Shown piece after piece: positions 2,701 through 10,804 of a stretch of DNA of 32,000 nt. Made by a program: the position numbers and the translations under genes. Each line of letters begins with the position of its first letter. Position 1 is the stretch's first letter. The notes below the pieces were generated by a model. The model ran no database searches. It was not told the origin of the DNA and worked only from the letters and a program-made list of their open reading frames with translations. The stretch is from Candidatus Electrothrix yaqonensis (lineage in GTDB: Bacteria > Desulfobacterota > Desulfobulbia > Desulfobulbales > Desulfobulbaceae), in contig CP178758.1 of the NCBI GenBank assembly GCA_047651235.1, forward strand, positions 2,700,001-2,732,000. The letters run 5' to 3'.

Positions 2701-2780
2701 TTTATCTGAAAGAACGGACAGCAGCAGGCAGCGGTGAATACGACCGGCACTAGGGCAACCTCTCTTTTCCATGACGATAA

Positions 2781-2808
2781 GTAGGGGCGGTTCGCGAACC
2801 GCCCCTAC
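2781..2808 (+). terminator. Perfect 14-bp-arm palindrome (possible terminator/structured element), no T-run
   Basis: GTAGGGGCGGTTCG|CGAACCGCCCCTAC is fully self-complementary. It lies 80 nt after the stop of ORF 2287..2700 and directly before the dnaX remnant. Confidence 0.4.
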
Positions 2809-2818
2809 TCCGCCGTAA

Positions 2819-3184
2819 TACCCTCTGAAGCACCTTATCCTTGCCCGTAAGTCCCGCCCCCAGACCTTTGCCCAGGTCGTCGGTCAGAAGCCCATTGTCC
2901 GGACTCTGCAGAACGGACTGCGGCAGCCCAGGATTCCTCGTGCCCTGCTCTTCAGCGGGGTACGCGGCACCGGCAAAACCACCCTTGCCCGCATCAGGGC
3001 CAAGGCCCTGAACTGCGAACGGGTTGCCCATGCGGAGCTGGCTGTCCATTTTGCCTCCCTTGCCGAATATGAAAAATTCCGGAAAGGCTTCGGCGGCAAT
3101 AGCATCAAATTCGGCCTCATCCGTTCCAGTATGCCTGTTGCCGGGCAAATACAAATTGATGCTCCTGCAGAAATCAATGTCTAA
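2819..3184 (+). pseudogene. dnaX: Remnant of the 5' end of dnaX (DNA polymerase III gamma/tau), truncated after the Walker A region
   Basis: The frame opening after TAA (2816-2818) reads YPLKHLILARKSRPQTFAQVVGQKPIVRTLQNGLRQPRIPRALLFSGVRGTGKTTLARIRAKALNCE... This matches the canonical DnaX N-terminus (LARKxRPQTFxxVVGQ...LFSGxRGxGKTTxAR...LNCE). There is no ATG; CTG sits where the start Met would be. The zinc-module cysteines are missing and similarity fades. Stop after 121 codons, so Walker B and sensor motifs are absent. Confidence 0.7.
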
Positions 3185-3221: not shown

Positions 3222-4271
3222 ATGGCGGAACGGTCAGGTGTTTCATGGATGGCAGGCGCTGGGTTGCTCCTTCTGCTCCTCGGTTCCGTGGTGCTTTCCG
3301 CCACCATGGGATTTATGGAAATCCCGGCCGCAACCGTGCTCCGGGTCATTACCGATGCTCTCCTGTCGCGCAGCAGGGAGGCCGGGACAGACCCGGTGGT
3401 CACGGCAGTGGTCATGGATGTGCGCCTGCCCCGGATTCTGGCGGCCGTGCTGGTGGGCGGTCTGCTGGCAGTCTGCGGCACGGTTTTCCAAGCTATCCTT
3501 CTGAATCCGCTAGCTGACCCCTACACCCTGGGCATTTCTTCCGGAGCTGCCTTCGGGGCCTCCCTGGTCATTGTCCTCCAGGTTATCGGACTGTCCCTGC
3601 CTGCTGATTTCTCCGTGCCTCTCTTTGCCTTTGCAGGCAGCGTCGGCACCCTGTTCACTGTGCTGGCCCTAGCTGCGGAAGACCAGCGGCTGTCCTCAAC
3701 CAGTCTGATTCTCTCCGGCGTTATTGTGGCAGCCATTCTGTCCGCTGCCATCGGTTTTCTGAAATTCATTGCCGATGAACAGGTCGGGATTATTATTTTC
3801 TGGCTCATGGGATCCCTTTCCGGGGTTTCCCGCCAGAATATCCTGCTGCTGCTGCCCACCGCCCTGGCCGGTGTAGGGGTCTGTTTGTTCCACAGCCGGG
3901 ATCTCAACATCATGGCCACCGGGGAACGGGCTGCCGCCACCCTGGGAGTCAATACGGTCCGGCTGCGCTGGATTCTGCTCATCACCTGTTCCCTGATGAC
4001 CGCATTGTGCGTTGCAGTCTCCGGGATTATCGGTTTTGTCGGCCTGATTGTTCCCCACTTGCTCCGGTATCTTATCGGGCCGGATAACCGGCAGCTGATT
4101 CTGCTTTCCTTTCTCGGCGGCGGGCTGTTGCTGCTGCTGGCCGATACTCTGACCAGGGCTGTACTGCCTGCCGAAGTTCCCATCGGCGTGCTCACCGCCC
4201 TGATCGGCGGACCGTTTTTCGCCTGTATCTTTAAAAAACGACAGCAGGAAAATGAGCAGGGCGCCCTCTGA
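3222..4271 (+). CDS. FecCD/BtuC-family ABC permease (iron-chelate or cobalamin type importer)
   Basis: 349 aa and highly hydrophobic. Family-typical stretches include NPLADPYTLGISSGAAFGASL, FWLMGSLSG and PIGVLTALIGGPFFACIF. Confidence 0.9.
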   Translation: MAERSGVSWMAGAGLLLLLLGSVVLSATMGFMEIPAATVLRVITDALLSRSREAGTDPVVTAVVMDVRLPRILAAVLVGGLLAVCGTVFQAILLNPLADPYTLGISSGAAFGASLVIVLQVIGLSLPADFSVPLFAFAGSVGTLFTVLALAAEDQRLSSTSLILSGVIVAAILSAAIGFLKFIADEQVGIIIFWLMGSLSGVSRQNILLLLPTALAGVGVCLFHSRDLNIMATGERAAATLGVNTVRLRWILLITCSLMTALCVAVSGIIGFVGLIVPHLLRYLIGPDNRQLILLSFLGGGLLLLLADTLTRAVLPAEVPIGVLTALIGGPFFACIFKKRQQENEQGAL

Positions 4272-5067
4272 TACCCTGTCTGATATCCTCTGGCAGCTTG
4301 ATCAGGTGGGGTTTGCCTATAAAGAACAGGCTGTTCTGGCGGAGATAACTCTTACCTTATCCGCAGAAAAATGTTACGGTGTCCTCGGTCCCAACGGCAG
4401 CGGCAAGACCACCCTGCTTGACCTGCTCTGCGGTCTTACCCCGGCGGGTACGGGAAAAATACAGTATCGCGGTACCCTGCTGGGTAACTGGCAGGCCCGT
4501 CAGCTGGCCCGCCGGGTGGCGCTGGTGCCCCAGGATTTTGTTGTCCGCTTTGGTTTTTCCGTGCGCGAGGTGGTGGAAATGGGCCGTCATCCTCATCTTG
4601 CCCGATTTGCCTCTCTAACCGGGCAGGAAGTTGCTCTGGTTGATGCTGTGATGCAGGAAATGGGGGTGGCTGAATTTTCCGGCCGCTCCGTAACGCGGCT
4701 GTCCGGCGGCGAAAAGCAGCGGGTTGCGGTTGCGCGGGCCTTGGTACAGGATCCGGAGGTGCTGCTGCTGGATGAGGCCACCTCGAACCTTGATATCTAC
4801 CATTCCCTGTCCATCCTCGGCCTGATTCGCCGTCGGGTCGTAGAGCAGGGGCTGACTGTGGTGGCAGCGATTCATGATCTGAATCTGGCCGCCTATTTCT
4901 GTGACGAGTTGATTTTTCTCAAAAATGGCAGGATTATCTGCCAGGGCTCGACCGACGAAGTTCTGCGCCCTGAGGTCATCCGGGAAGTGTACGGGGTGGA
5001 GGCGCAGGTTCGGGAAGATGCTTTTTCTGCCTGCAGCCAGGTGAGTTACCGGCTTCCTGCTGCATGA
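4252..5067 (+). CDS. ABC transporter ATP-binding protein (FepC/BtuD/HmuV-like)
   Basis: Walker A GPNGSGKTT, signature LSGGEKQRV, Walker B LLLDEATSNLD and the H-loop region AAIHDLN. It overlaps the permease gene by 20 nt. Confidence 0.9.
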   Translation: MSRAPSDTLSDILWQLDQVGFAYKEQAVLAEITLTLSAEKCYGVLGPNGSGKTTLLDLLCGLTPAGTGKIQYRGTLLGNWQARQLARRVALVPQDFVVRFGFSVREVVEMGRHPHLARFASLTGQEVALVDAVMQEMGVAEFSGRSVTRLSGGEKQRVAVARALVQDPEVLLLDEATSNLDIYHSLSILGLIRRRVVEQGLTVVAAIHDLNLAAYFCDELIFLKNGRIICQGSTDEVLRPEVIREVYGVEAQVREDAFSACSQVSYRLPAA

Positions 5068-5092
5068 ATATCTATCCTTCAGGAGTAACGCA

Positions 5093-6019
5093 ATGCGTAA
5101 CCGATTTTCTCTTCTTGTTCTGTTCTCTCTGTTTTCTCTGCTGCTGGCTGCTGGCCCGGCTCTCAGCGCCCCTATTGTGGATAATGACGGCAGGGTGATT
5201 CAGCCGGACAAGCCCTTTGCCCGGATTATTTCCCTGTACGCCGCCCATACCCGCAATCTGATGGATATGGGCGCAGAATCGCAGATTGTGGCCATCGGTC
5301 GCAGTGATAAACAGCTGCCTGATCTGCCTAAACTCAGTTTCCGGGATGATCCGGAACGGCTGCTGGCCCTGCAGCCTAATCTCGTGCTGATCCGCCCCAT
5401 GCTCAGCCGGGCCTATCCGAATATGGTGGAACGCCTTGAACAGAACGGGGTAACCGTGGTTTCTCTGCAGCCCACTTCAGTGGATGAGATGTTCCGGTAC
5501 TGGGAGAATCTGGGCATCCTGAGTGGGCATGCAGAGGAGGCCCGGCAGATGATCACCCGGTTCGGCGTCGCTCTTGCGGAAATCAAAGAGCAGGTGGACA
5601 CGATTCCCGCAGAGAAGAGGAAGCGGGTCTATTTTGAATCCATCCACAAAAGGATGAAGACCTTTGCTCCTGATTCCATGGCCATGTTTGTCCTGGAATC
5701 TGCAGGCGGCATCAACGTGGCCACGGATGCCGTGCAGGTGCGGAAAACGAATATCGCAGAGTACGGCAAAGAGCGTATTCTGGCCAAGGCCGGACAGATC
5801 GATGTTTTTCTGGCCCAGCAGGGCCGGATGAATCAGGTGACCAAGGAAATAATCAGAAATGAACCCGGTTTTCAGGTCATCAAAGCGGTGCAGGAAAATC
5901 AGATTTTTCTGGTTGATGAAAAGCAGGTCTCCCGGCCGACTATGGGCCTGCTGGAAGGAATCAGAACAGTTGTTTCGCTGCTGTATCCCGACGACATCAG
6001 AGACGATGAGCAGCAGTGA
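5093..6019 (+). CDS. Periplasmic binding protein of the iron-siderophore/cobalamin class (Peripla_BP_2-like)
   Basis: AGGAG RBS. Signal peptide MRNRFSLLVLFSLFSLLLAAGPALSA. RIISLYAAHTRNLMDMGAESQIVAIG...LLALQPNLVLI is typical of BtuF/FhuD-class binding proteins. Confidence 0.85.
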   Translation: MRNRFSLLVLFSLFSLLLAAGPALSAPIVDNDGRVIQPDKPFARIISLYAAHTRNLMDMGAESQIVAIGRSDKQLPDLPKLSFRDDPERLLALQPNLVLIRPMLSRAYPNMVERLEQNGVTVVSLQPTSVDEMFRYWENLGILSGHAEEARQMITRFGVALAEIKEQVDTIPAEKRKRVYFESIHKRMKTFAPDSMAMFVLESAGGINVATDAVQVRKTNIAEYGKERILAKAGQIDVFLAQQGRMNQVTKEIIRNEPGFQVIKAVQENQIFLVDEKQVSRPTMGLLEGIRTVVSLLYPDDIRDDEQQ

Positions 6020-6057
6020 TGAGCAGCGATAAATCTGGGTAATCAGGTGATCGTGCT

Positions 6058-6552
6058 ATGCAGCAGGTTATTGGATCGGAAAAGAAACCGATACAATTAT
6101 GGCTCCGGGACATTGAAGAAGGGGCGCTGGAACAGGCCAGGAACTTGGCCAACCTGCCTTTTACCTTCCGCCATGTTCTTATGCCGGATTCTCACCAAGG
6201 CTACGGCATGCCCATCGGCGGGGTTTTGGTAACAAAAGACGCGGTAATTCCCAATGCCGTCGGAGTTGATATCGGCTGCGGCATGTGCGCTGTGCAGACC
6301 TCGCTCCGGGATATTGAGCGCAAGGCGCTGAAGAAAATCATGGGGGAAATACGTCGCGCAGTGCCGGTCGGAGGCATCGCCTTCGGCCTCGACCGCCTGA
6401 TGATGCTCCTCACCGGCTCCAGCTCCATCCGGGACATGATCGCCTTCCCAAAGACCCAGAAGGCCACCTGTCCCCTCACTGAGGATCCTGCTTCTGTTGC
6501 GAGAAAACAACTCACCAAGCTGCATCTCCGGCCCGAATGGAAGGAAGAGTAA
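6058..6552 (+). pseudogene. In-frame chimera: about 105 N-terminal codons of RNA ligase RtcB fused to about 58 C-terminal codons of aspartyl-tRNA synthetase
   Basis: Residues 1-105 carry RtcB hallmarks: [26 protein letters not shown] and [10 protein letters not shown]. From about nt 6373 the frame reads [42 protein letters not shown]..., the class II motif-3/C-terminal tail of AspRS. It is neither a complete RtcB nor a complete AspRS. Confidence 0.75.
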
Positions 6553-6580
6553 GGCCGAAGCTTGACGCTGTACGGAACGG

Positions 6581-6611
6581 ACGATCAGCTCCTGATCGTT
6601 CATCTTCTTTC
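6581..6611 (+). terminator. Candidate intrinsic terminator after the chimeric ORF
   Basis: ACGATCAG-ctc-CTGATCGT (8-bp stem, very small loop) followed by the T-rich tcatcttctttc. Confidence 0.3.
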
Positions 6612-6642
6612 ATAATTACTGCCGAACCGATACCGGAGGATC

Positions 6643-8172
6643 ATGCGCAAGCTGCCTATAGGTATTCAGACCTTCAGCGAAATCCGTGAAGAAGAATACC
6701 GCTACGTTGATAAAACACAATTCGCTGTTGAGCTGATCAACAACGGCAAATACTATTTTCTCTCCCGGCCTCGCCGCTTCGGCAAGAGCCTTTTTCTTTC
6801 CACCTTACAGGCTGTGTTCGAGGGACAGAAGGAACTGTTTCACGGCCTGTCCATCCATGATACCTGGGATTGGGGCGCGGTCTATCCGGTCGTCAAAATC
6901 AGTTTTGCCGGAGTGGCCCGCAATGTTGCCGCCATGCAGCAGGATATCAGAAATATCCTCAAGGATAACCAGGAACGCCTGGACATCGACTGCCTGCTTG
7001 ATGAAGATACAGGGGGCTGCTTGCGGGAGCTGATCAGAAAGGCTTTTGAGAAATATCAGCAGAAAGTCGTTATCCTGGTGGATGAGTACGACAAGCTGAT
7101 CCTGGATAATCTGGATCAGATGGAGGTTGCCGGGGAGGCAAGGGAAATACTCAAAGACCTGTACACAATTATCAAGGACTGCGACGAGTATATCAAATTC
7201 TCCTTTTTTACCGGGGTCAGTAAATTCGCCAAGGTTTCTGTGTTCAGCGGCCTGAACAATCTTTCCGATATCTCCCTTGACAGCCGTTACGCCACTGTCT
7301 GCGGCTATACCCAGGATGATCTGGAGACCGTTTTTGCCGACCTCCTGCGGGATGCAGATATGGAGAAGGTGCGGGACTGGTACAACGGTTATAATTTTAT
7401 CGGGGAAAAGGTCTATAATCCCTTTGATATCCTGCTCTTCATCGACAAGGGATGTATCTTTAATAATTACTGGTTCGCGACCGGTACGCCCACCTTTCTG
7501 CTCAAGCTGATCCGGCAGAATAACTATTTTCTTCCTCGTCTGTCCGACCTGCGGGTTGACAGCTCGCTTCTCGACGGTTTTGATATTGATCATATCAGGC
7601 TGGAACCTGTCCTGTTTCAGGCTGGTTACCTGACCATCAAAAAGATTTACGAACTGGAGTTCGGAGGCTTTGAATATACCCTGCACTACCCGAACAGGGA
7701 GGTCGCCCTTTCCTTTAATGACGCGCTTATCCGCTTTCTGACGGACGCGACAACATATACCCCCACCAAGACCGGCCTGTTTTCCGCATTAAAAAACGGT
7801 GATATTGAAGCATTGGAAGATGTACTTGTTTCCCTGTTTGCCTCCATCCCCTATAATAATTATGTCAAAAACACCCTTGCCGAGTATGAGGGCTATTATG
7901 CCAGTGTGATTTATGCCTACCTCGCAAGCCTGGGTATCCGCATCATTGCTGAGGATGTGACCAATACCGGGCGCATTGATTTAACGCTCTTTTTGGATGA
8001 TAACATCTATATTGTCGAGTTTAAAGTCGATGGTGGCGTGGAACCCCTTGAGCAGATTAAAGAAAGGAAGTATGCGCAGAAGTATACAGGCCAGGGGACA
8101 GTGTATTTGGTCGGTATTCTCTTCAGCAGTACAAAGAAAAATATTGCGGCGTTTTCTTGGGAAAGGGTCTGA
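6643..8172 (+). CDS. AAA-ATPase-like N-terminal domain + PD-(D/E)XK nuclease-like C-terminal domain protein (family of unknown function)
   Basis: The N-terminus KLPIGIQTFSEIREEEYRYVDKTQF...YYFLSRPRRFGKSLFLSTLQAVFEG is the hallmark of the 'predicted AAA-ATPase' family. The C-terminus YEGYYASVIYAYLASLG...GRIDLTL...IYIVEFKVD...QIKERKY fits the associated PD-(D/E)XK module. Confidence 0.8.
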   Translation: MRKLPIGIQTFSEIREEEYRYVDKTQFAVELINNGKYYFLSRPRRFGKSLFLSTLQAVFEGQKELFHGLSIHDTWDWGAVYPVVKISFAGVARNVAAMQQDIRNILKDNQERLDIDCLLDEDTGGCLRELIRKAFEKYQQKVVILVDEYDKLILDNLDQMEVAGEAREILKDLYTIIKDCDEYIKFSFFTGVSKFAKVSVFSGLNNLSDISLDSRYATVCGYTQDDLETVFADLLRDADMEKVRDWYNGYNFIGEKVYNPFDILLFIDKGCIFNNYWFATGTPTFLLKLIRQNNYFLPRLSDLRVDSSLLDGFDIDHIRLEPVLFQAGYLTIKKIYELEFGGFEYTLHYPNREVALSFNDALIRFLTDATTYTPTKTGLFSALKNGDIEALEDVLVSLFASIPYNNYVKNTLAEYEGYYASVIYAYLASLGIRIIAEDVTNTGRIDLTLFLDDNIYIVEFKVDGGVEPLEQIKERKYAQKYTGQGTVYLVGILFSSTKKNIAAFSWERV

Positions 8173-8524
8173 TGCGCTCTGCGTCTCCGCCTTTGGGATG
8201 TGATTGTCTTCCTTCCGATTTTTAATAGCAAATGATTTGATTTCGTTATCAAACCGTTCTGTTTGTTTATCTAAATATTTGATGAGCAGATCAAATTGCT
8301 GGATGAGCAGATCAAATTTTTTGATCTTTTTATCTAAATTTTAGATAATCTCATCTTATTTTTGGATGGGATTATCGAGGATACTGATAGGGAGATTGAA
8401 TTGATTTTATATTTTTTTGATATCTTTTATGTGCCCGATTAAGTGGTTAAATTGATTGTAGTTATCCTCTATATAATAATAATGTTCAATCGAAAAACGG
8501 ATTTGATTTCGCTAATAAAGTTAA

Positions 8525-9778
8525 ATGTCTAATATTTTTAATGCAATAATAGCGGGCCTGAGTATATCAATTAGAAAAATTGGACTCTTCTTTACTTCCG
8601 TTATTGCCGGGATTAAAATTATCTTGCTTAAGATAAAGGATTTTATATTATATTCTATAAATATTATTATCGATGGAATTATTCGTTTATGTAATTTGCT
8701 GATTGAAAAAATTGTTTCTTTAGTAAATTATCTGCTAAGAATATACTTATCTTTTGAATCCGGGGTAGTAAAATTTATACAGATCGTACTAAAATTTCTT
8801 ATAAAAATAAGATGGGGATGTGTAATTTTCACTTGTTTGTATGGTATTTGGATTTTTTTTGGATTTATTGCTTTTGTTGCCGCAATTTTTACATGCTTCA
8901 TTCTTTGGTTTATTGGACGTTCGAGTGCAGAGGAACAGGAAGAAAAATGGAATGAACGAATTGATAAAATTAATAGATTTATTGAAAATCCGTTAAGGTA
9001 TACTGTACGAATTATTTTAATAATTGTTCCTTTCGCTTTCTCTATTTATTATTTATTTAATGGTAGAAATCATACAGATAAAGGAAATAAAATTAATAAC
9101 GAGCTTATAGGTGATGAAAAAATAATACAAGATAGAGTCCTTCCTGAATTAAAAAAGAAACCATTACAGAAAAAACAAGTCAGTAAGCCTAATTTAGGCA
9201 AACAGGAGAAGGATAAGAAGAAAAATTATGATTTATTTAAGCCGGTAATCAAAAACGAACAAGATGTGATAGATAAATTGCCAATACCTTATTATGATTA
9301 TGATGCTTGTCCGTTTGAAGGTTGCGTCTATCGAGGGTGGACAGTTATGGAAAACACTCGGGTTAGAAAAGAAAAAGATATAAATTCTAATGTTTCATTT
9401 TATGTAAGAAAAGGAGAAACCGTTACTGCGTTAACTGGTGTTGTTGTAACTTTAAAACCGTCGAAGATATTGGTTTTAAACACATATAAAATTGACCAAG
9501 AAATAACTGTCAAAAAAGGAGATATTTTATATGAGTATACTTATTTAGGAGAAGGTTTTTCGAAAATATGGTTTAAAGGAAAAATGTACCATGATGGAAT
9601 ACCTATTAATCCAACTGATTTTGATATATTAAAAAAGGGAGAATCTGTCTGGTGGATTAAAATTAGAAACAAAGAAGGAAAAGAGGGCTGGACAAAAGAA
9701 GCAGAACATTTTGGTAATAAAGATTTATTTGGGATAAAAAACTATAAAAGTTTACCTTTATTTACAGTTTCAGATTAA
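8525..9778 (+). CDS. Hypothetical membrane protein. N-terminus is Ile/Leu-rich amphipathic with TM segments, the linker is Lys-rich, and the C-terminal half is beta-rich and SH3-like
   Basis: A 417-aa intact ORF in a strongly AT-rich segment. TM candidates are GCVIFTCLYGIWIFFGFIAFVAAIFTCFILWFIG and VRIILIIVPFAFSIYYLF. The linker is KKKPLQKKQVSKPNLGKQEKDKKKN. The C-terminal region (YDACPFEGCVYRGWTV...GESVWWIKIRNKEGKEGW) looks like bacterial SH3-type folds. This is an impression only. Confidence 0.6.
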   Translation: MSNIFNAIIAGLSISIRKIGLFFTSVIAGIKIILLKIKDFILYSINIIIDGIIRLCNLLIEKIVSLVNYLLRIYLSFESGVVKFIQIVLKFLIKIRWGCVIFTCLYGIWIFFGFIAFVAAIFTCFILWFIGRSSAEEQEEKWNERIDKINRFIENPLRYTVRIILIIVPFAFSIYYLFNGRNHTDKGNKINNELIGDEKIIQDRVLPELKKKPLQKKQVSKPNLGKQEKDKKKNYDLFKPVIKNEQDVIDKLPIPYYDYDACPFEGCVYRGWTVMENTRVRKEKDINSNVSFYVRKGETVTALTGVVVTLKPSKILVLNTYKIDQEITVKKGDILYEYTYLGEGFSKIWFKGKMYHDGIPINPTDFDILKKGESVWWIKIRNKEGKEGWTKEAEHFGNKDLFGIKNYKSLPLFTVSD

Positions 9779-9807
9779 GAAAGGAAGGGCTTAAGTTTTT
9801 CGTAAAC

Positions 9808-9916
9808 CTTAACAGGAAGTATCACCATGCCGCAAAATAACCTCATCGAACAAATCGCCCAACTCCTGGGCGTGGAATTTCCACGCCCCTTGATCCCTCT
9901 GAAGTAAAATCCCTGC
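9808..9916 (+). repeat. Copy 1 of a ~110-bp diverged direct repeat; contains RBS + ATG (9827) and a 26-codon ORF ending at 9907
   Basis: cttaacaggaagtatcaccATGccgcaaaataacctcatcgaacaaatcgcccaactcctgggcgtggaatttccacgccccttgatccctctgaagtaaaatccctgc aligns with 10718..10827. The core caaatcgcccaactcctgggcgtggaatt is identical. Peptide: MPQNNLIEQIAQLLGVEFPRPLIPLK*. Confidence 0.8.
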
Positions 9917-10027
9917 CCGGCTATGAGGTCGTTGCCGCCCGCTTTTCTTTTCTTGCTGTAATATGCTAAAATAAAAAAACAGGTTCTGATCGCCAACTGA
10001 CTTTCTGAAAATTACAAGGAGGATGCC

Positions 10028-10267
10028 ATGCCTTCAAATGCTGCCGGAGTAAAAAACAGTATCTCTGTTCAACCGCACGCTCTCAGCAATGTACAGATGG
10101 AACTTATCAAATTATATTCTACCAATTTAAATGATAACGAATTGCTGGAACTGAAAAATATTCTTGTGCAGCACTTCAGCCGAAAAGCGATCAACGAGGC
10201 TGACCGCTTATGGGAAGAAAAAAGAATGTCGGCACAGACTATGGATGACTGGCTGAATGAAAATTAA
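10028..10267 (+). CDS. Small protein, putative antitoxin partner of the downstream PIN gene
   Basis: 79 aa with RBS aaggaggatgccATG. It overlaps the PIN start by 11 nt, an operon geometry typical of type II toxin-antitoxin pairs. No DNA-binding fold recognised with certainty. Confidence 0.5.
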   Translation: MPSNAAGVKNSISVQPHALSNVQMELIKLYSTNLNDNELLELKNILVQHFSRKAINEADRLWEEKRMSAQTMDDWLNEN

Positions 10268-10804
10268 GCCGATATTTGTCATTGATACCAATGTGCTGCT
10301 CGTTTCAATATCCGGCAAATCACAGTATCATTGGATATTCCAAGGCTTGATCAATCAGGAATTCGAGATTGCCTTTACCACGGAAATCCTTTCGGAATAC
10401 GAAGAGATTATTGCAGCAAAGTATTCTCCATCAGTCGCTCAAAATGTCATCAGGACGCTTCTCGTTCTGCCGAATGCGGTTCAGACCGTTGTTATTACAA
10501 CTGGTGCTTACTATCGGACGATGACGACAATAAATTTGTCGATTGCGCTGTAGCGGCAAATGTCGATGCAGTCGTCACGCATGATAAACATTTCAATATT
10601 CTTGCAACCATTCCGTTCCCTTCTGTAAACGTTATTGACATTCCAAAGCTGGAAGATATGCTGAAGTTGCAGAGCAGGAAAATACAGCAAATTCAAAGCA
10701 GATTCATTTGTTGCAATCTTAACAAGGAGAATCACCATGCCGAACAACAACATCACCGACCAAATCGCCCAACTCCTGGGCGTGGAATTCCCGCCTCCCC
10801 TTGA
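10257..10804 (+). pseudogene. PIN-domain toxin (TIGR00305-like) interrupted by a 1-nt frameshift near 10485-10505
   Basis: Frame A (from 10257) gives MKIKPIFVIDTNVLLVSISGKSQYHWIFQGLINQEFEIAFTTEILSEYEEII... and stops at 10553. Frame B carries the expected continuation ...LLSDDDDNKFVDCAVAANVDAVVTHDKHFNIL... The conserved acidic residues are therefore split between two frames. Frame B then reads through into repeat copy 2. Confidence 0.7.

Follow-up and report, generated by a model that had tools for sequence, protein, structure and literature searches.

What is a reading frame that begins as rtcB and ends as aspS: a new protein, an error of assembly, or what is left of a rearrangement? The question is raised by a stretch of 32,000 nucleotides (from here on the window; G000:C1:2700001-2732000) of the genome of Candidatus Electrothrix yaqonensis (G000), which is closed, 3.74 Mb long and consists of a single contig.

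The hybrid frame and its junction

The list of open reading frames of the window and the sequence itself give an uninterrupted frame of 164 aa with an ATG start at 6058-6552 of the forward strand. The original prediction had described it as an in-frame splice of rtcB and aspS with a switch at about 6373, and this is what we have found: codons 1-105 of rtcB (6058..6372, +, identified by the Pfam RtcB domain and by alignment to relatives) pass at nt 6372/6373, without a change of frame, into the final 59 codons of the gene for aspartyl-tRNA synthetase (AspRS). The rtcB share had been put at the 5' third; it is indeed the 5' part, but amounts to about a quarter of the gene (105 of ~392 residues, ~27%), followed by the original last tenth of aspS.

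The domain content follows the same division. The Pfam RtcB domain (PF01139) covers aa 26-106 of the hybrid (profile 1-83/426, E 2.8e-24), the Pfam family tRNA-synt_2, here the end of the class II synthetase core, covers aa 101-134 (profile 275-308/308, E 8.3e-11) and the NCBIfam model of aspartate--tRNA ligase covers aa 103-160 (profile 530-587/590, E 1.5e-20). When the two halves are searched apart, as had been advised, each still gives its own domain match. The rtcB stump is 71-76% identical at the amino acid level to the full-length RtcB of nine genomes of the same genus, in which the gene is a frame of 393-434 aa, and every match of these same-genus proteins to the hybrid ends at residue 105.

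The junction was placed by alignment against the nine same-genus rtcB genes and aspS. The sequence reads ...CCGGTCGGA and then GGCATCGCC..., with the switch falling between CCGGTCGGA and GGCATCGCC. After CCGGTNGGN the rtcB of the relatives continues with TTY (Phe), where the hybrid instead runs on as aspS with GGCATCGCC; aspS itself carries CACGGC ahead of this point. Within the junction (6369..6373, +) about 3 nt, CGG at 6369-6371, are common to both parents. This is the microhomology expected of illegitimate recombination, the mechanism that had been proposed. It had been suggested to look for shared bases (GG/GGC) around 6370-6376 by alignment to the full-length rtcB of the same genome, but no such gene exists in G000. 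A search for repeats or insertion sequence (IS) ends at the junctions gave nothing significant. A 21-nt inverted match that spans the junction (2731-2751 / 6360-6380) is at the level expected by chance for 6.4 kb.

The hybrid protein is a singleton among 5.8 billion clustered proteins, and none of the database matches listed has both an RtcB and an AspRS domain. The frame is thus, as far as these comparisons go, not a conserved fusion, in line with the prediction. Two candidates for such a fusion had to be discarded, a match in the related genome G010 to residues 79-164, which could have been taken for a shared hybrid, and a group of database matches with 95% coverage of the hybrid; all of them are alignment extensions without RtcB-AspRS architecture.

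Content, decay and expression of the two parts

The RtcB part corresponds to residues 41-132 of the 481-residue RtcB of P. horikoshii and falls short of the full domain (~390-480 aa). Active-site motifs of RtcB had been predicted before the switch. The N-terminal Asp/Cys metal-binding motif (GxDIxCG) is present, with GVDIGCGM of the hybrid aligning with GYDINCG of PH1602, but it is not the whole active site: the histidine nucleophile and the other His ligands are not in the hybrid, whose RtcB sequence stops at residue 105. We take the guanylylation His and the other His ligands of metal and GTP to lie in the C-terminal three quarters of the protein, as in the P. horikoshii and E. coli enzymes.

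On the other side of the switch, the expected motif 3 (GLDR) and C-terminal extension of AspRS are both there, and the stretch with ...AFPKTQ corresponds in alignment to residues 534-592 in 4wj3 and to 526-581 in the AspRS of E. coli. The synthetase models are matched only at their very end (527-582/586 and 530-587/590), with 65-73 bits against cut-offs of 374-443 (TIGR00459 / NF001750), and the anticodon-binding OB fold, class II motifs 1 and 2 and the insertion domain are not found in the hybrid. Because nearly all the catalytic parts of both parents are missing, the frame is regarded as non-catalytic, and the protein is predicted to have neither ligase nor synthetase activity. That neither half could be complete had been foreseen, and the short profile spans (1-83/426 for RtcB) bear it out.

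The remainder of rtcB is not elsewhere in the genome either. A Pfam search of the whole closed genome recovered no other RtcB, and tblastn with the 392-aa RtcB of G010 found only residues 1-106, residues 107-392 being absent from G000. The organism appears to be without any functional RtcB. In the relatives, the neighbours of rtcB map collinearly to G000 1770295-1776761, where synteny breaks, and no remnant of rtcB was found at this native locus (~1.777 Mb). Around the stump in the window, there is no flanking gene in common with any of eleven relatives. Because the native locus near 1.777 Mb is empty, the stump is best described as a displaced piece. From G000:C1:1776754 onward (L036), the synteny with G010 and G001 stops ~90 nt short of their rtcB stop codon.

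As a separate observation, many RtcB N-terminal proteins of ~130-165 aa appear among the database matches, on long contigs (36 kb to 3 Mb). They include P0008, P0015, P0023, P0029, P0030, P0085 and P0112, and one is assigned by name to Ca. Electrothrix aarhusensis. Such a pattern could come from split genes, inteins or recoding, or from an rtcB that is often truncated.

The decay of each part was compared with the divergence of intact genes of the same genome. Within the genus, G000 is the outgroup species, with an AspRS that shares 84-87% identity with those of the other members, vs 92-97% among these, and an RtcB N-terminus that shares 71-76% vs 85-99%, a divergence ratio similar to that of AspRS. 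Fast evolution of the stump had been considered from its 71-76% identity and was rejected, since this raw identity is what is expected for the outgroup. We have therefore used the sites that are invariant in the same five relatives, with the intact AspRS and the AAA gene (see below) of G000 as reference; these differ at 7.9% of such sites. The rtcB stump differs at 16/87 (18.4%; odds ratio 2.6, p = 0.002), a modest excess, and has lost one codon within the conserved FRH(I/V)A(L/I)MPD motif. The aspS tail of the hybrid differs at 7/56 (12.5%; p = 0.21), which is not significant, and the tail of the functional aspS at 8.9%. Four unique replacements in the hybrid's tail had been taken as a candidate sign of decay, and this was also rejected, the excess over the intact G000 genes not being significant. 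The excess and the codon deletion in the stump, together with the lack of a significant excess in the tail, fit a stump that is older and a tail that was orphaned more recently.

Just upstream of the hybrid lies an intact operon for a FecCD-type ABC importer (permease, ATPase and binding protein; 3222..6019, +, Pfam), which ends 38 nt before it and is a likely source of read-through. The terminator scan found no terminator-like site on the + strand between this operon and position 6579. A Shine-Dalgarno-like AGGTGA (6045..6050, +) precedes the ATG at 6058 by 7 nt and would allow translation. The hybrid may, to judge by this arrangement, be transcribed as a passenger of the ABC operon. The start codon and the terminator-like hairpin that the prediction had pointed out are both in place, the latter with a T-tract at 6579-6601. 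The same features, an intact frame with a Shine-Dalgarno-like site, no terminator between it and the operon and one after its stop, could be read as those of a genuine new small protein, one that is produced and has acquired a role such as that of a regulator or binding module. We consider this highly improbable. The protein is a singleton, a join of this kind has a 1-in-3 chance of being in frame, the rtcB part shows relaxed constraint, and both pieces are cut out of larger single folds.

The original end of aspS and its inverted counterpart

The origin of the aspS part becomes clearer when its downstream surroundings are compared with those of aspS in the genus. The tail starts with 63 nt (block 'a'; 6373..6435, +) that are 100% identical to the functional aspS copy of G000 (3029130-3029192, -). 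The rest of the original tail with its stop (a2 + b1; 6436..6552, +) is of the type ending in KEE that is also found in the relative G011, and is collinear with the G011 aspS 3' end. It is followed by native aspS downstream sequence (6553..6601, +, terminator scan), in which G011 shares the bases after the stop and G001 has the hairpin at 89% identity. Next comes an AAA-ATPase_like/PDDEXK_9 gene (6643..8172, +; Pfam PF09820 and PF08011). Its orthologs, with 90-92% amino acid identity, are found 0.1-5 kb downstream of aspS and on the same strand in G011, G010, G003, G001 and G005, that is, in 5/5 of the relatives that have one. In G011 the upstream neighbour, an intact aspS, a 94-nt spacer and the AAA gene form one block, and window positions 6369-6700 align to the aspS-AAA stretch of this genome contiguously.

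The conservation of the AAA gene behind aspS in the genus marks the 2.706-Mb site as the ancestral aspS locus, and by this synteny the tail of the hybrid is the original aspS 3' end, still at its ancestral site. The prediction had seen in the frame the fossil of a duplicated or rearranged segment. The segment is rearranged and partly duplicated, but the tail did not come to rtcB as a copy; the native end has stayed in its own place.

The AAA-ATPase_like/PDDEXK_9 family is represented by 4-12 full-length paralogs in each relative genome, at 37-56% identity and some of them in tandem. Window 8000-10500 is an abrupt AT-rich island (29-38% G+C vs ~55% in the flanks); it contains a 417-aa frame to which no Pfam family could be confidently assigned and, after it, an ORF for a PIN_3 fragment (10331-10804).

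A functional aspS had been expected to exist elsewhere in the genome, and it does. The sole full aspS of G000 (3029013-3030806, -) encodes 598 aa and lies 323 kb from the hybrid on the opposite strand, so that the two tail copies are inverted (2706373-2706552, +, vs 3029013-3029192, -). The block seen in G011 is split in G000: the upstream neighbour (72% amino acid identity) and the body of aspS are at 3.03 Mb (-), the tail and the AAA gene at 2.706 Mb (+). The two tails differ from each other in a graded manner. Block 'a' shows 0/63 differences, where orthologous aspS genes differ from G000 by 17-25%, and is a candidate crossover or conversion tract. The following 36 nt are 89% identical, and the last 78 nt (block b) only 77%, no closer than to other species. 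The functional aspS ends in a different tail and a different type of terminator, after which comes a segment, here called X, with 86% identity to the region downstream of aspS in G010.

Two further observations were made on aspS surroundings in G000. Directly after segment X, a 180-aa ORF (G000:C1:3028087-3028626, -; L024 11088-11627) carries a bacterial EndoU nuclease domain (E 4e-14), and after it come thiamine-synthesis genes in the opposite orientation. The ORF could represent a toxin-type module left as an orphan at a breakpoint. A third scrap of aspS, 123 nt with 86% identity to nt 1535-1657 of 1794, is found at G000:C1:3589667-3589786 (-; L025 7667-7786). Its frame is broken by 1 nt, and it reaches across the position of the hybrid's breakpoint and ends inside block 'a'.

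The differences between the two tails also bear on whether the hybrid exists at all. A misassembly, in the form of a false join of an rtcB read to aspS reads, would be expected to reproduce the sequence of the real aspS, and a full rtcB should then remain elsewhere. Instead, the tail 6436..6552 differs from the functional one at 22 of 117 nt and runs into a conserved terminator of its own and the syntenic AAA gene, no full rtcB is present and the genome is a single closed contig. Misassembly is, judged from these data, very unlikely as the source of the hybrid, and we give the false join next to no probability.

A different explanation would be that the genome gained a second complete aspS at 3.03 Mb, by duplication or from outside, and that the original copy beside the AAA gene decayed, by a deletion running from a neighbouring rtcB pseudogene into aspS. 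Partial paralogs do decay in this very window. A 5' stump of dnaX (2832-3066, +) is found just before the ABC operon and follows a tRNA gene (1993-2075) and the adjacent SRP RNA gene (2105-2203); over positions 2832-3023 it shares 89% identity with 517285-517476 in the dnaX of this genome, and 3018-3066 match 517804-517852, which amounts to an internal deletion of ~330 nt with respect to the full dnaX at 0.517 Mb. For aspS, by contrast, the copy at 3.03 Mb keeps the ancestral upstream neighbour (the one with 72% identity to G011) together with X, and 2.706 Mb has only the downstream side. That each site holds one side of the locus is the signature of one split locus and not of two copies. No remnant of the upstream neighbour or of the aspS body was found near window position 6000, no relative with two full aspS genes was seen, and rtcB and aspS are far from each other in all closed relatives, which also speaks against a deletion between them. 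Duplication of aspS with decay of the original copy is accordingly an improbable origin.

The ABC operon upstream is conserved in five relatives with a different downstream content in each, and its end is a synteny breakpoint because what follows differs in every relative. The hybrid is one junction in a patchwork of rearranged DNA. Just upstream of the dnaX stump, window 2780-2809 is a perfect GC-rich palindrome of 30 nt (15+15 nt) with near-identical copies at many sites of G000, such as 849392, 1002594, 1356248 and 2978316, and looks like a REP-type dispersed repeat.

Origin of the scar and the aspS-AAA interval in the genus

These observations taken together leave us about 90% confident that the hybrid is a non-functional scar which holds the orphaned native tail of aspS. 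For the way in which it arose, we would give roughly even odds to a swap of tails between inverted repeats. In an older step, illegitimate recombination at the 3-nt microhomology would have joined the genome's own rtcB stump (codons 1-105) to a partial aspS 3' end, producing a small scar of the form rtcB'-a-b2-X (rtcB' being the stump, and b1 and b2 the native and the replacement tail), inverted and ~323 kb from aspS; the remainder of rtcB would then have been lost from the genome. Later, RecA-type homologous recombination in block 'a' between the real aspS and the inverted scar would have flipped the 323-kb segment and exchanged both tails. The gene aspS would have kept its body and its upstream neighbour and gained the replacement tail b2 with X, and the native tail b1 would have remained where aspS ancestrally lay, together with its terminator and the AAA gene, in frame behind rtcB'.

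When a crossover inside the 63-nt block is undone on paper, the order upstream neighbour, aspS, b1, terminator, AAA gene is exactly that of G011, and the other end becomes ABC operon, rtcB', a, b2, X. We infer the order of events and the crossover within 'a' from a single genome of this species. Several points count against the tail swap. It presupposes a scar, rtcB'-a-b2-X, for which no explanation is at hand and whose making would take at least three additional breakpoints, and the 63-nt identity could be due to gene conversion without crossover. Neither GC skew (0.007 +/- 0.008 in the 323-kb segment vs 0.008 and -0.004 in the flanks) nor gene-orientation bias gives a mark of inversion for the segment, although both signals are too weak across this genome to decide either way.

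Chromosomal inversions arise by homologous recombination between inverted repeats such as rrn operons or IS copies. The arrangement in G000 shares the features of such inversions, with inverted copies at the ends of the flipped segment and the ancestral gene order restored on turning it back. It differs in that the repeat is 63-180 nt of the 3' end of an essential gene and that the flip also exchanges the last 38 codons. Exchange of C-terminal ends by inversion is well known from the Gin-dependent S/S' tail fibre of Mu, the R64 shufflon and hsdS, where a dedicated site-specific invertase brings about phase variation. There too, alternative 3' ends are put on one constant gene body by inversion, but here we have found no invertase, the segment measures 323 kb and there is no hint of switching that is regulated or recurs. 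With one-off chimeric pseudogenes produced by deletion or illegitimate recombination, the hybrid has in common the in-frame fusion of two truncated parents, its singleton status and the microhomology at the joint. Unlike in these, an essential gene has contributed its original end as one of the parent pieces, and this gene was saved only by a spare tail.

The tails of aspS in the relatives suggest another route. Between aspS and the AAA gene the relatives carry variable inserts of low GC. In G010 two extra aspS tail copies separate genes for a FAD-dependent protein, a GNAT acetyltransferase and an uncharacterized protein of 160 aa; a single additional tail is present in G003, and G001 and G005 have inserts of 4.6-5 kb and duplicated 5' fragments of the AAA gene. 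The aspS tail types are swapped between genomes. A cassette of 0.7 kb and low GC (34%; L022 4783-5507 in G010 and L023 4137-5057 in G003) is 99% identical between these two genomes, although their AspRS are only 94% identical. It encodes a 160-aa protein without a Pfam match, is found only in G010 and G003, and occurs only at aspS, between aspS tail copies in both. The displaced tandem tail of G010 has an identity block of 38 nt at its left edge and that of G003 likewise has one.

Foreign DNA with an aspS tail of its own (b2 and X) could in the same way have inserted into the 3' end of aspS, giving a tandem array, aspS-a-b2-X...a-b1-terminator-AAA, on one strand. This would have been followed by an inversion or translocation whose illegitimate breaks fell within the displaced copy of the tail and at rtcB codon 105, and then by deletion of the reciprocal rtcB 3' junction. 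The displaced tails with identity blocks, the swapped tails and the 99% identical cassette all favour such a history, the 3-nt microhomology fits an illegitimate break, and tandem arrays at an in-gene integration site with RecA-mediated reshuffling are described for integrative and conjugative elements (ICEs; PMC5812530). Nevertheless, a further deletion is needed to erase all of the 3' part of rtcB, no integrase is near either tail copy, and the array alone leaves unexplained the exact inversion in which one crossover in 'a' restores the order of G011. Moreover, the hybrid's tail would have been non-functional for longer than under the tail swap, and yet shows no significant decay. We regard the array followed by illegitimate inversion as possible but doubtful. 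It agrees with the tail swap in that the tail is an orphaned native end and the frame a scar.

The comparison with integrated elements can be taken further. Duplicated 3' ends of target genes flank genomic islands and ICEs at their integration sites (attL/attR) and accumulate by tandem accretion, as with SXT/R391 in prfC and ICESt1/ICESt3 at fda (PMC5812530). The situation at aspS is alike in the partial 3'-end copies of a housekeeping gene, in an incoming surrogate tail that completes the gene and displaces the native one, in the identity block at the edge of the repeat and in the arrays and swapped cassettes of G010 and G003. It is unlike in several respects. None of the six tyrosine-recombinase matches of G000 is within 25 kb of the aspS tail copies, the cassettes measure only 0.7-5 kb, and the G000 copies are inverted and 323 kb apart instead of being direct repeats around an island. 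Even in G010 and G003, where the tails are direct repeats, the left boundaries are not the same between events; the left edges lie at codon -59 in G000, whereas relatives have them at about -66 and -42, and G001 downstream of the stop codon. A literature search gave nothing relevant on aspS as an island integration site. By analogy, the interval would resemble in-gene tandem accretion without the hallmarks of one site-specific recombinase.

These patterns hint that the aspS-AAA interval is a recurrent insertion hotspot without integrase in the genus. Taken to its end, this would make it an integrase-independent cassette-exchange hotspot of the cable-bacteria genus, of which the G000 hybrid is one by-product, a reading that we find rather unlikely. 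Short circles or fragments with an aspS tail, a terminator and cargo would enter by homologous recombination in the aspS 3' end, and at least three alternative AspRS C-terminal tails would circulate between species. The adjacent multi-copy nuclease-fold (AAA/PDDEXK) gene may promote breaks.

The hybrid is a real but ordinary rearrangement scar and not a working enzyme, and there is no sign of a new enzyme or system here. For annotation, the frame should be marked as a pseudogene or scar and not as RtcB or AspRS, and the organism recorded as being without RtcB altogether. The tail cassettes that recur at aspS in the sister species may deserve a study of their own. The locus is one more, well-resolved case for the view that cable-bacteria genomes are heavily reshuffled, and indicates that an essential gene can survive a breakpoint within its coding region when a spare 3' end is available, the tails being merely swapped.
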